64,000 nt of DNA from Parachlamydiales bacterium (GTDB lineage: Bacteria; Chlamydiota; Chlamydiia; Chlamydiales; JAJFMK01). The notes beneath the pieces are model-generated. The model had not been told where the DNA came from. It was given only the letters and a program-made list of their open reading frames with translations, and did no database searches. The number at the start of each line of letters is the position of its first letter. Within the stretch, counting starts at the first letter, position 1. Below, in pieces: positions 1,054 through 53,930 of the stretch. The position numbers were made by a program, and so were the translations under genes. The stretch is from contig CAVXVG010000005.1 in the NCBI GenBank assembly GCA_963765145.1, positions 32,001-96,000 on the forward strand, given 5' to 3'.

Positions 1054-1470
1054 ACGCAACGCGTTTGGAGTGCTAAACGGCCTTGTTGCATAATTCAATT
1101 TCTAATTAAAAAATGTAGCTCCAGGCTTTAGAAGTACTTGCAAAAATCGGATTGTTGGCTTTTTTTTAGAAACAGGTCCGAAGACCGAAATATGAAAGCC
1201 CAGCGCCGAAGGCCTGGGTTACAAATGTGAAATAAAATTGGAGTCCTGAAAGGACGGCATAAAATATCTCCTGTAGTGTTTGTGGAACAGGATATGTCGT
1301 CCCTTCAGGACTCCAATTTCTATTGGCATACTTACCCTGGCCTTCGACCAGGGCTTTCATATTTCGGCCCTTCGGGCCTGTTTCTGAGCTTAATCTGATT
1401 TTTGCAAGTGCCTCTAAAGTCTAAGCTACAATATTTGTCCAAATTAAGATTAATTATGCGCTCCAAACGC
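1054..1470. repeat. Nested palindromic repeat (shells 1-3 plus core A), copy 1
   Basis: 1113-1431 is near-identical to 49319-49640 and to the reverse complement of 9938-10256; outer arms GCGTTTGGAG..CGGCCTTGTTGCATAATT and AATTATGCGCTCCAAACGC. Confidence 0.9.
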
Positions 1471-3605
1471 TAGCGCGAGGCAGGTAGTTTTGCTGTTTGT
1501 AGAGGGAGGGTGACGGTGAAGGTGGAGCCGAGGTCGGGGGTGCTGGTGAAGGTGATGGTGCCATCCATCATTTCGACGATGGCGCGGGTAATGTAAAGGC
1601 CAAGCCCAGATCCTGGCACGTTTCCACGCCTGATCGGCGAGAATTTTTCAAAGAGATGTTGCTGGTCTTCTTTGTTAATACCCACGCCAGTATCTTCCAC
1701 CTCGAGCGATAACACCCCTTTTTCTAAGGCTTCGGTATATCCGATGGTAACTAAAACAGACCCTTTATTTGTAAATTTGATCGCATTTCCCACCAGGTTA
1801 TTAAAGATCTGCCGCAATCTTGTTGGGTCGATATAGAGCTGTTCCGGAACATTGCAATGCAGTTCAAGCGATATCCCTTTTTCTTTTGCTTTAGGTAAAA
1901 GAAGGGTGATTAAATCGCCCGCGATTTTGTTGACATCTTCGATAGAAGGTTCAAGGGGGATTTTACCTGTTTCCAGTTTGGCTAAATCTAACACCTCATT
2001 GACCACCTTTAGAAGGTGTTGGCCTGAAGAGCGCATGATGTCCAGCAATCGCAACTGTTTGGCATCTTCTGTGGTATTTTCCAGAATGTCGACTGAGGCA
2101 ATGATCCCCGAAAGAGGTGTCCTCAGTTCATGGCTAACTTGGGCAAGAAAAGCCGACCGAGCCAAACTGCGGGCAGCTATCATTCTGCTCTCTTCAAATA
2201 ACTTGAGGGCCATGTAGGTCAAAATCGCCACAAAAATCGAAATCAAAGACCCAAAAAGAAAAGCTGTTAAAGGAAAATAGCTTTGTTCGTTTTTAATAAA
2301 CTGAGAAGTGGCCCAAAAATCTACCTTCCACTTTGTGTTGAAAATTTTAACAGAATCTTTTGCCTCTAAATACTTATAAGTCACATCATTTTTGTTGTTT
2401 TCATAGACCTCATGTCCACTAGCAGAAATGGTCAAGCCTGTTTCTTTTTTCCGATATTCGGGCACAAAGTCTGACAAAAGCTCATCGATTGAAATCACTC
2501 CGACTTCATGGTTGTTTTTACGTCCTTTAGGAGTTACATAAATTAAATGGGGGCGATCGGTCGCATGAGAAAAGCGGATTTTGGGCTTTCTTTTGGGCGT
2601 CAGCTCTTTTGCACGCTCTTGGATCTCTCTTTCTATGTCGCCTCTGTTGGTCAAAATAGACCATTTTTTTTGAATGATCTCTCCGGAATCCGACAATTTG
2701 ACGATGCCGACTAGCCCCTGTAGGTCGTGTAGGTAACTGATAGCGCTCTTCTTCCATTCGTTTTCTGGCGAAGAGGGTGACTTTTCAAAATTTATCTTCG
2801 ACAGCCGATCAAGTGCGCTTGTCACAATTGTCATTTTTTCAACCAGGGCCTTTGTATACTCTTTGGCTAGCGATTCCACCGTTTGATGGATGTAGGAGGC
2901 TTGGTGGAGCGCCAAAGCCCTTGTAAAAGCAATCGTGGTAGAAAAAAGGATCATCCCAACCAGGGCAGCACTCCAAATAGGCAAGATGCTCTTGTCAGTC
3001 TCTGCAAGTTCTTTTGTGGCAGCTGCAAGTTGGAGGAGGGAGGCTATTGAGAGGCCAATAGCCGTTGAAAAGGCCATCCTTGTTAAATCGCCCCAGCTGT
3101 AGGCAGCTTCAATCCCCGAAACATACCCCCAAAAAGCAACCAAAGTGATGGCAAAACAAAGCCCGGCTAGTAGACCAATTAGTAAGAGGTGGAACGTCTT
3201 GAGCTTTTTAAGATTAAAGAGCAGCAGAGAAAAGAAAAGGCAAGTAAAACAAAATAAGGTGTTTAAACCACAATATTCGACCTCCATAAGTTTCGAAGGC
3301 TCGAAAAAAAGCTGGTTTAACCCCCAAGGAAAGTCAAATAGCCTCTGGATGAGTAAAATCAGGGCAAAAAGCCCCCCCATCAAAGCAATAGCTGTCGACG
3401 CTTTCTTTAATCCGAGAATGTAAAAAAGAGCTCCAAACCCTAGAATAACTAAAAGAAGGGCTGAATTGAAATACATGGGGGCAAAGGAGGGGCTCCATTG
3501 AACCAGCCAGACCGCTCCGGTCAGCCATCCTATAATAACGCTTAGCCCCAGTAGGATAACGAAAATTGAACCCCATACTCCCACTTTCCAGATCTTTTCG
3601 CCCAT
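1470..3605 (-). CDS. Membrane sensor histidine kinase (multi-TM N-terminus, HisKA plus HATPase)
   Basis: SHELRTPL H-box, NLVGNAIKFT N-box, DTGVGI, GSGLGL; no receiver domain and no adjacent response regulator. Confidence 0.92.
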   Translation of the reverse strand: MGEKIWKVGVWGSIFVILLGLSVIIGWLTGAVWLVQWSPSFAPMYFNSALLLVILGFGALFYILGLKKASTAIALMGGLFALILLIQRLFDFPWGLNQLFFEPSKLMEVEYCGLNTLFCFTCLFFSLLLFNLKKLKTFHLLLIGLLAGLCFAITLVAFWGYVSGIEAAYSWGDLTRMAFSTAIGLSIASLLQLAAATKELAETDKSILPIWSAALVGMILFSTTIAFTRALALHQASYIHQTVESLAKEYTKALVEKMTIVTSALDRLSKINFEKSPSSPENEWKKSAISYLHDLQGLVGIVKLSDSGEIIQKKWSILTNRGDIEREIQERAKELTPKRKPKIRFSHATDRPHLIYVTPKGRKNNHEVGVISIDELLSDFVPEYRKKETGLTISASGHEVYENNKNDVTYKYLEAKDSVKIFNTKWKVDFWATSQFIKNEQSYFPLTAFLFGSLISIFVAILTYMALKLFEESRMIAARSLARSAFLAQVSHELRTPLSGIIASVDILENTTEDAKQLRLLDIMRSSGQHLLKVVNEVLDLAKLETGKIPLEPSIEDVNKIAGDLITLLLPKAKEKGISLELHCNVPEQLYIDPTRLRQIFNNLVGNAIKFTNKGSVLVTIGYTEALEKGVLSLEVEDTGVGINKEDQQHLFEKFSPIRRGNVPGSGLGLYITRAIVEMMDGTITFTSTPDLGSTFTVTLPLQTAKLPASR

Positions 3606-3691
3606 GCTTTTTCTATAAAGCTCTGAAATTTTAAAGAATATTAATAAAGATCGGTTTCAATGGGGTTGACGAAATAAAAGGGGAGCTCCCT

Positions 3692-52304: not shown

Positions 52305-53582
52305 TTATAGCTCCTCAACAGGCATACCTAGGGCTTGAAAGGCTTTTGCAAAATTTGGAAATGTTTTGCAAACACATTCGATGGAAGAGATGGTTGTATC
52401 TCCTTCAGCCCCCATGCCGGCGACAGCAAGAGACATAGCCATCCGGTGATCTTGATGAGAGTGGACATTTGCCCCTTTAAGAGAAGATCCTTTAATTATT
52501 AGCCCATCGGCCGTTTCATTAATATCAGCTCCCATTTTTTGAAGTTGAGTGGCAATGGTCTCGATCCGGTTGCACTCTTTTCCTTTAGCGACAGCTCCGT
52601 TATAAATGTGGGTTGTTCCTTCTGCATAACAGGCGACGACGGCTAAAATAGGAAGGGCATCGACAAAATCGTTGATGTCGACAGTGACCCCTTTTAAAGT
52701 TGCACATTTTTTGACAGTGAGGGTTTTCCCTTTTACTTCTATGTTAGCGCCCATTTTTTGGAAAACGGGGATCAAGGCTTTGTCGCCTTGAGCATCTTCC
52801 ATATCGATGTTGTAAATGTTGAGTTCAGAGCCTGTCACGATGGCTGCAGCGATTGGGAAGGCAGCGGTGCTAAAATCGCCTGGAACGGTGTAGGTAAAGC
52901 CTTTGATCCGGGCATTTCCTTGTAGTTTAAAACAGTCAAAGCCTTGTTGTTCATAAGGAATGCCAAGAAGGTCGAACCAATGGAGGGTGAGGGCTACCCA
53001 GGGTTTTTCTCCGGGATTTTTGACCTCGATTTCGACAGGTCCTTTTGCAAGCGCTGCTGCCACCAACAAGGCAGAAACAGGTTGAGAGTCGGCCCCATCG
53101 ATTGTTGTTTTACCAGGCTTTAAAGGCCCTTTGATGATGACAGGCGCAAATCCATCGCCTCGAAGTGTTTGAACAATAACGTCCAATGTTTCTAAAGCGT
53201 CTAACAGAGGTTGTATAGGCCTGACGTGTCGTATGGAATGGTCGCCTGTGATAACGACAGGAAAGCTGGATAATGCACCGATAGCAGAAAAAAACCGGAG
53301 GACAATTCCTGAGTTACCGGCGTCGATCACATCTTCGAACGGGCCAACAGCGCCTGCAACCCCTTCAATTTCCAGTCGATCTTCGAAAATATCGATTTTT
53401 GCACCCATGTGGCGGCAAGCCTTGATCATCGAGTCGGTGTCGCTTGAATCGAGGTAACGATGGATCACACTTTTTCCAACAGCTAAGGCTGCGAACAGAA
53501 TGGCTCTTAAAGTGTGCGACTTAGAGGAAGGAACTTCGATTTCCCCTTGCAAAAACCCTTTTCTAACCCGGAATGCTTTCAT
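52305..53582 (-). CDS. aroA: EPSP synthase
   Basis: PSSKSHTLR, GNSG, SQPVSALL, KECNR, DHRMAM. Confidence 0.96.
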   Translation of the reverse strand: MKAFRVRKGFLQGEIEVPSSKSHTLRAILFAALAVGKSVIHRYLDSSDTDSMIKACRHMGAKIDIFEDRLEIEGVAGAVGPFEDVIDAGNSGIVLRFFSAIGALSSFPVVITGDHSIRHVRPIQPLLDALETLDVIVQTLRGDGFAPVIIKGPLKPGKTTIDGADSQPVSALLVAAALAKGPVEIEVKNPGEKPWVALTLHWFDLLGIPYEQQGFDCFKLQGNARIKGFTYTVPGDFSTAAFPIAAAIVTGSELNIYNIDMEDAQGDKALIPVFQKMGANIEVKGKTLTVKKCATLKGVTVDINDFVDALPILAVVACYAEGTTHIYNGAVAKGKECNRIETIATQLQKMGADINETADGLIIKGSSLKGANVHSHQDHRMAMSLAVAGMGAEGDTTISSIECVCKTFPNFAKAFQALGMPVEEL

Positions 53583-53629
53583 CCCCTAAATATTACGCCA
53601 ACTTCCCTTAAAAAACTTTATCGTTTGCC

Positions 53630-53930
53630 ACGGCCTTGTTGCATAATTGTTCACTGCGCTTCTTTATTCCTGTAGCCTTACAGGCTACCTAATTTATTTT
53701 CCAACTTAACCCGGGGCGTTGCCCGCGGGCTGTTGCAATTTTGGCCTTTCAGGCCAATGAAAACGTACATAGAGATTTTCCGGCTGAAAGCCGGATAGTT
53801 GCAACAGCCTGTGGGCAACGCCCCAGGTTAAGGCAGAAAATAAAGATGGCAGCCTGTAGGGCTGCCGGAAACTCGAAAGATCTCGAGGCAATTACGCAAC
53901 AAGGCTGTTTAGCACACCAAACGCTCCGCG
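53630..53930. repeat. Nested palindromic repeat (shells 1-2 plus a single core B, inverted relative to the 24.3 kb copies)
   Basis: ACGGCCTTGTTGCATAATT ... AATTACGCAACAAGGCTGTTTAGCACACCAAACGC; the core is the reverse complement of 24291-24467. Confidence 0.88.

Follow-up and report, generated by a model that had tools for sequence, protein, structure and literature searches.

What are the nested palindromes of a chlamydial genome made of, and how do they come to lie inside one another? The question is raised by a window of 64,000 nucleotides from a Parachlamydiales bacterium (assembly GCA_963765145.1, contig CAVXVG010000005.1, positions 32,001 to 96,000, forward strand), in which six loci, here called a to f (1054-1470, 9921-10256, 24034-24703, 43751-44310, 49281-49701 and 53630-53930), are built from concentric inverted repeats. 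The original prediction, made from the letters of the window, described three shells around exchangeable cores A to D and proposed that a number of non-autonomous families insert, in a fixed order, into the middle of each other's palindromes. The six nested loci and their motifs are indeed present at these positions, individual copies lack some arms as had been described, and the window holds no transposase, with no match of PF01797, PF01609, PF05598 or any of six transposases of the genome. Insertion of several non-autonomous families into each other's centres was borne out too. We consider it very probable that the nests are doublets of repetitive extragenic palindromes (REPs) alternating with ends of IS903-group and IS1182-like insertion sequences (ISs) set in their loops, and that they have grown by repeated targeted transposition of cargo-bearing units.

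The source genome (G000) has 2.68 Mb in 37 contigs, is 84.8% complete and repeats every part of the nests tens of times. We compared it with a genome of the same genus (G001, one contig, read whole) and with two genomes of another chlamydial family (G228 and G298). Because motif scans allowing two mismatches gave many single ends by chance, counts were taken from pairs of ends or from stricter patterns. The shells had been presented as all alike. We observed two kinds in equal share, REP arms and terminal repeats of ISs, the latter accompanied by target duplications. Each shell corresponds either to the end of a full element or to the sequence flanking a Y1 tyrosine transposase gene, and the IS ends occupy loop positions of the REPs with duplications of 9 or 4 base pairs (bp). 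The nesting of the shells stands but the third shell is not one unit, since it joins a GTAG-tagged REP arm (3a) to an unrelated IS terminal repeat (3b) with a duplicated 4-mer between them.

The terminal repeat of an IS903-group element (IS5 family) forms shell 2. The full element is present in three copies in G000, one with an intact frame of 322 amino acids (aa) and two frameshifted as assembled. Its transposase scores 296 bits with the IS5 model (cut-off 140) and is 43% identical to IS903B-family proteins over 96% of its length. An IS903-type DDE transposase between shared terminal repeats and a 9-bp duplication, the marks of the IS903 group, were thus both found, and IS903B is likewise described as making a 9-bp duplication in the accessible part of PMC13618097. 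Unlike the IS903 group, the shell-2 element strongly prefers a single 9-mer of the REP doublet called REP-1, which 99 of 137 shell-2 motif matches abut (background 0.00076). Direct flanking 9-mers with at most one mismatch were counted as duplications; they were found for 27 of the 57 shell-2 pairs, and 6 others have inverted flanks. The same preference is seen in G228, where the closest IS903-type transposase (72%) is inserted at this REP-1 9-mer with a duplication. Two 156-bp shell-2 elements without REP cargo lie there at the same 9-mer, also duplicated, so that targeting does not require cargo. Five more distant IS903-type relatives (L186, L191, L197, L199, L206) have the same kind of ends outside REP-1. 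Shell-2 nests concentrate between convergent genes (27 of 59 gaps versus 247 of 1178 overall; this and the intergenic statistics below rest on crude gene calls). A 53-bp element of genome G162 (L247) consists of two shell-2-type ends with almost no interior.

Shell 3b is the terminal repeat of an IS1182-like element which duplicates TAAA and encodes a 391-aa protein with DUF772 and DDE domains. This protein is 37-45% identical to IS1182-annotated proteins, and the nearest plasmid proteins listed are mostly annotated as IS1182. One nest of G000 (C27:207.2-208.9k) is complete: REP-1 encloses a shell-2 pair with its 9-bp duplication, then REP-3, then the full IS1182-like IS with its 4-bp duplication. 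Among 29 shell-3b pairs, 20 have a direct 4-bp duplication and 7 have inverted flanks; 22 are hosted by REP-3, 4 by REP-1 (directly in shell 1) and 3 by other sequences. The host loops are TTTA/TAAA in REP-3 and TCCT/AGGA in REP-1, and since they differ in sequence it is likely that structure guides the element, as for IS1272. According to the available text of PMC4923244, hairpins of no fixed sequence are the targets of IS1272, of the IS1182 family, which removes part of the stem and makes no duplication; the element studied here also targets hairpins without a fixed loop sequence but duplicates the 4-base loop. Terminal repeats, a short duplication and hairpin targets, all traits of the IS1182 family, were found for shell 3b.

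Shell 1 is an arm of REP-1, a palindromic doublet of about 95 bp with 91 empty copies in G000 and no evident 5' GTAG-type tag. The REP-1 motif matches 236 times in G000, 220 in G228, 17 in G298 and 8 in G001, and at most twice in each of the remaining 297 of the 301 genomes scanned (G094 was left unscored in part of the genome comparisons); the exact REP-1 18-mer gave 2 single matches, in unrelated genomes, in the collection of genome contigs. In G228, REP-1 arrays flank a Y1 gene (L241) that scores above the cut-off of NF047646, the model for REP-associated tyrosine transposases (RAYTs). We found no RAYT with REP-1 flanks in G000 or G001; a 55% homolog in G001 (L029) was considered as the REP-1 RAYT and rejected, as it has no REP-1 flanks within the stretch read. 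Shell 3a is the arm of REP-3, with GTAG outside, whose doublet has a constant length of 103-106 bp. REP-3 flanks the RAYT genes L005 and L006 in G000 (L005 above the NF047646 cut-off) and has 25 empty copies there. No shell-2 end lies within 45 bp of 16 of 26 REP-3 doublets, four of which retain linker-like sequence. Outside intergenic gaps there are only 12 of 282 REP-1 motif matches and 1 of 100 for REP-3. For shells 1 and 3a we thus found inverted doublets, many intergenic copies and a flanked RAYT gene, as in REPINs (REPs invertedly repeated) associated with RAYTs. REP-1 also hosts an IS110-family element (five copies), a second IS110-type element (one copy) and an insert, H, with 22 motif matches, 13 of them with a matching right junction. 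H is likely an IS110/IS1111-type derivative; its parent element was looked for and not found, nor was that of a 322-bp element of G001 described below.

The cores had been likened to REP doublets, and for A and B this held. Core A, with three window copies of 93-99% identity, matches palindromic arrays around the Y1 gene L003, and core B matches those around L002, which are B-like. Both Y1 proteins carry a Y----Q motif, score with the IS200 model and lie below the RAYT model cut-off; by their motif only, they would fit class 3 of the classification in the accessible part of PMC6006769. Core A lies between shell-3b ends in 15 of 17 real copies (an eighteenth row, C26:130787, was discarded as a chance match) and the remaining two retain remnants, while 32 of 34 core-B rows have at least one end. 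In locus a, the core-A arm at 1335-1379 matches the Acido-Lenti-1 RNA motif (RF01687; PMC2864571, seen in part), and this match belongs to a Y1-flanking REP array; one arm reaches the gathering score in all three window copies (37.6 versus 37) and the arms beside L003 fall below it. About five tandem core-B units stand within a single shell-2 pair at C26:256.3-257.3k of G000. Inverted duplication of one half was examined as an origin of the composites by comparing 20 elements with shuffles, and was rejected except for core C, the only clear case (left against right linker, z 8.1), its halves being homologous; two other elements were borderline (p 0.034 and 0.050). The restriction of B to shells 1-2 and of C and D to shell 3, true in the window, does not hold across the genome: in 5 of 84 cases a D arm is found behind a shell-2 end, and core C lies within shells 1-2-3 at C29:2547. 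A motif scan of G000 and G001 yielded three GxxExxY genes (L249; L067:16946-17446; L070:14244-14669), and each of them adjoins D or a further palindrome, E, which suggests that REP-like families may be tied to GxxExxY proteins, as an association without mechanism. A four-helix-bundle gene (TIGR02436; L248:72-443, G000 C26) is flanked by inverted TTGCCC-type repeats, which cluster with 37 loci elsewhere.

Do the units between IS ends move? The duplicated 9-mer matches the local host variant on each side. Near-identical units form clusters of 6 (shell 2 with B) and 8 (shell 3b with A) among 24 and 15 elements, respectively, host variants and inner units being compared by cluster. These units occupy different host variants, loops or orientations, and therefore the unit bounded by its ends has moved with its cargo. 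Doublets A and B likely spread as passengers between DDE ends rather than by an enzyme of their own. In the pairs with inverted flanks, the middle of the host is gone and the element end exactly abuts the partner target. The fixed order of insertion did not survive: shell 1 lies inside shell 2 in 2 of 57 pairs, and shell 3b is found in shell 1 as well. What lies outermost within the 57 shell-2 pairs is B in 27, REP-3 in 14, F in 7, E in 3, the transposase in 3, REP-1 in 2 and D in 1, and since it is spread over several kinds, the order is a preference with recursion. The small units are non-coding, have the ends of autonomous ISs, show target duplications and occur in multiple copies, like MITEs, miniature transposable elements with inverted repeats. 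The parent-derived interior of a MITE was not found, the interiors being REP doublets and linkers unlike the sub-terminal sequence of the resident parents; core C is a possible exception.

With these parts, the six loci read as follows (window coordinates).

1055..1078, plus strand: locus a, REP-1 left arm (shell 1), whose last 9 bp are the target GTGCTAAAC (1070-1078); 91 empty doublets genome-wide
1079..1095, plus strand: locus a, left IS903-type terminal repeat (shell 2); right counterpart truncated (1452-1459)
1113..1130, plus strand: locus a, REP-3 left arm (shell 3a), loop 4-mer TTTA at 1127-1130
1131..1414, plus strand: locus a, IS1182-type miniature element (shell 3b ends) with REP doublet A as cargo (~1175-1379)
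1415..1477, plus strand: locus a, loop 4-mer, then the right arm of REP-3, a linker, the truncated shell-2 end and the right arm of REP-1
9922..9954, plus strand: locus b, decayed shell-2 end, REP-3 arm and loop 4-mer TAAA (9951-9954)
9955..10239, minus strand: locus b, IS1182-type miniature element with core A and a direct 4-bp TAAA duplication (C5:41955)
10240..10256, plus strand: locus b, duplicated 4-mer and REP-3 right arm
24035..24050, plus strand: locus c, REP-1 left arm as far as its GGAG core
24051..24230, plus strand: locus c, extra insert H with an E-type palindrome and GGAG on either side
24257..24680, plus strand: locus c, IS903-type miniature element with REP doublet B as cargo, a 177-bp tandem duplicate (24289-24663)
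24681..24702, plus strand: locus c, 9-bp target and REP-1 right arm
43751..43767, plus strand: locus d, REP-3 left arm, loop TTTA (43764-43767)
43768..43930, plus strand: locus d, core C, an IS1182-type miniature element of 163 bp whose halves are homologous, without REP cargo and with TTTA duplicated directly
43931..44012, plus strand: locus d, middle of the REP-3 doublet, between both inserts
44013..44293, plus strand: locus d, IS1182-type miniature element with a D-type palindrome and a direct TAAA duplication
44294..44310, plus strand: locus d, duplicated 4-mer and REP-3 right arm
49285..49677, plus strand: locus e, IS903-type pair around a collapsed REP-3 and an IS1182-type core-A element (49336-49623)
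49678..49701, plus strand: locus e, 9-bp target and REP-1 right arm
53632..53906, plus strand: locus f, IS903-type miniature element with REP doublet B (53670-53867)
53907..53930, plus strand: locus f, 9-bp target and REP-1 right arm

Locus d had been read as one shell around its cores; it is instead one REP-3 doublet with a separate insert, C or D, in each loop. In locus c, the insert at 24051-24230 had been missed, and core B proved to be a tandem duplicate. In locus a, the IS1182-type element has inverted flanks (TTTA and TAAA) and the middle of the host doublet is missing; the whole locus (1054-1470) folds as a single DNA hairpin of -125.7 kcal/mol (z -18.8), and none of 100 shuffles was equally stable. 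The 9-mers that flank locus f mismatch at 2 of 9 positions, and the left REP-1 arm is absent from locus e. There, at the side that lacks this arm, a 49-codon frame (49151-49297) enters the left shell-2 end of locus e and is possibly a gene cut by a deletion; a likeness to the start of a Fic protein was considered and dropped, with no support from Pfam, NCBIfam or tblastn. Beside this locus, the window carries genes (45921-49026) that look like those for LigD and Ku of non-homologous end joining.

Elsewhere in the window, two tandem arrays of paralogous outer-membrane-like proteins extend over 19390-27215, with one paralog split (25269-25946 and 24737-25297), and a group II intron occupies 37395-39158 (RF02005 at 37395-37634; reverse transcriptase/maturase above the TIGR04416 cut-off). 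A two-gene block (11811-14245) is bordered by D-type repeats, the right arms of which make up a direct repeat of ~70 bp; the block encodes a 469-aa protein without Pfam or NCBIfam match and a 217-aa DUF6036 nucleotidyltransferase, and looks as if it were integrated or excisable via recombination in D. Three short repeats at 60179-60294 are of the kind that elsewhere in the genome flanks a single gene, L004, of the Y1 plus DnaA-type helix-turn-helix kind.

Comparison with G001 showed that the orthologous gaps of a, c, d and f, sites that the original prediction had proposed to compare in relatives, contain no such nest. At the site of e a decayed REP-1 end is in the orthologous position, and the gene preceding b is followed by a different nest; locus b (9915-10293) coincides with a break of synteny between both genomes (G001 52.3k and 1167k). 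G001 retains composites, and a parallel nest has expanded there, in which a D palindrome encloses the 322-bp element (11-bp direct duplication in 20 of 30 pairs) and this encloses an E palindrome. G001 has, at 106.7k, an intact B-type Y1 gene enclosed by a shell-2 pair within REP-1, the 9-mers differing by one base; the nest at 52.4k has outer arms 92-95% like those at 106.7k and lacks the gene. The pair may have moved together with the gene, or the gene may have come in afterwards. The Y1 gene in this shell-2 pair (L028:1155-2260) has arms of ~200 bp that are near-perfect inverted copies of one another and hold a further IS-like end. Other expectations raised with the prediction were confirmed in these genomes: empty REP-1 and REP-3 shells and the same shells with different cores occur, full IS903-group and IS1182-like elements share the termini in G000, and Y1/RAYT genes are found (three families in G000, that of REP-1 in G228). 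The TTGCAWAA termini, which had been likened to the ends of Rickettsia palindromic elements or MITEs, find their explanation in these two resident ISs.

Could the nests have been multiplied in another way? If the outermost doublet's RAYT copied whole nests, each as one long hairpin, the IS-like ends being passive relics picked up once, one would understand why nests fold as one hairpin, why some clusters of near-identical units share both host variant and side (e.g. 4 copies of 276-278 bp) and why two G001 nests have an identical one-base flank mismatch. However, near-identical inner units are found in different host variants, with variant-matched duplications and in either loop, and shell-3b units also exist outside shells 1-2, so that we regard such copying as improbable. 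A single hierarchy of new MITE-like families inserting in fixed order appears very unlikely to us: the order 1, 2, 3a, 3b, A does recur and most real core-A copies (15 of 17) lie within shell 3b, but a known IS or RAYT family stands behind each shell and the order has exceptions. We give least credit to the idea that the symmetric and deeply nested forms are artefacts of short-read assembly. The 37 contigs of G000 might suggest it, and contigs from the public runs X1 and X2 stop within repeats and show strand-switch joints; on the other hand, the single-contig G001 shows the same symmetric form (96.5 kb) and other nests, and misjoins are not expected to give variant-matched duplications. Contigs of these runs cross the unique-to-repeat junctions at 43784, 44277 and 53659.

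Several observations weigh against alternation of REP doublets and IS ends through repeated transposition, which we nevertheless prefer. Neither direct nor inverted flanks were found for 24 of the 57 shell-2 pairs (2 of them at contig ends) and for 2 of the 29 shell-3b pairs, and the sharing of host variant and side by some clusters is what whole-nest copying predicts. Beyond ~17 bp, the linkers of the miniature elements no longer agree with the sub-terminal parts of the full elements in the genome, so that a direct parent was not found. The 391-aa protein scores 119.6 with its best NCBIfam model, IS1182, below the cut-off of 270; a close homolog of the REP-1 RAYT was not found in the 84.8%-complete G000; and G001 has shell-2 and shell-3b ends yet no match to either DDE transposase. 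No contig of X1 or X2 spans a whole nest. Finally, neither transposition, cleavage nor polymorphism was observed.

If the nests grew by such alternation, REP doublets would have spread first, in a RAYT-dependent manner, and DDE elements and their derivatives would then have landed in the REP loops, where site and duplication are seen and the action of the enzyme is presumed. The DDE transposases may mobilise the miniature elements in trans. Some derivatives would have gained a REP doublet or gene cassette by RAYT-type insertion followed by internal deletion, the weakest step of the scheme. A carried doublet such as REP-3 would offer new target loops, giving recursive nesting whose usual order would follow from target preference. 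The symmetric copies could have arisen if the host middle was deleted, starting at the end of the element and reaching the partner loop, or if two inserts recombined.

How does this compare with known systems? The accessible text of PMC1525189 reports that ISPsy8, ISRm22, ISRm19, ISPa11 and ISPpu9/10 insert at one REP position, ISPsy8 and ISRm22 at the palindrome axis with short direct repeats, and ascribes hybrid flanks to recombination or adjacent deletion. Insertion at one REP position with short direct repeats is found here too. Unlike those elements, the guests described here are mostly non-autonomous and carry REP doublets, which leads to recursive nesting, and one REP family takes IS903-group, IS1182-like and two IS110-type elements. 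Like the REP/REPIN-RAYT systems (bioRxiv 10.1101/2021.07.10.451892, PMC6006769, PMC8266576, as far as available), our doublets are inverted, intergenic and flank Y1 genes; A and B differ in lying almost exclusively between DDE ends and in being associated with Y1 genes that carry the Y----Q motif and score with the IS200 model instead of the RAYT model. REP dimers enclosed in longer palindromes are described for Anabaena variabilis GTAG-15 and Halothiobacillus neapolitanus CGTC-1, where empty palindromes were not found and the accessible part of the article names no parent element (PMC3733652); in contrast, empty copies, parents and duplications are all present here. Searching by title and the start of abstracts, with most subscription journals and supplements outside the search, we found no literature describing this system or DDE miniature elements with REP doublets. 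Targeting of REPs by ISs is already known and no part of the nests is a new family; the spread of REP doublets as DDE cargo is the less usual part.

For annotation, our results link an Rfam 'sRNA' match with a repeat that flanks a Y1 gene. Further assets of the system are an IS903-type transposase whose target is sharp and conserved, with relatives lacking this target for comparison, and a candidate IS1182-like enzyme that would duplicate a 4-bp loop. Terminal repeats and target duplications, the signature that DDE transposition leaves, mark two of the REP families. Cleavage of single-strand REP DNA is, in the accessible part of bioRxiv 10.1101/2021.07.10.451892, the only functional link shown between RAYTs and REPINs; here candidate enzymes and targets reside in one genome, and the DDE route is therefore directly testable. 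More tentatively, and with less than even confidence, we propose a partnership in which REPs serve as landing pads for DDE elements while DDE ends are the main vehicle of REPs and can carry an intact RAYT cassette. If true, it would give REPs and RAYTs a way to spread and to pass between lineages without RAYT transposition.

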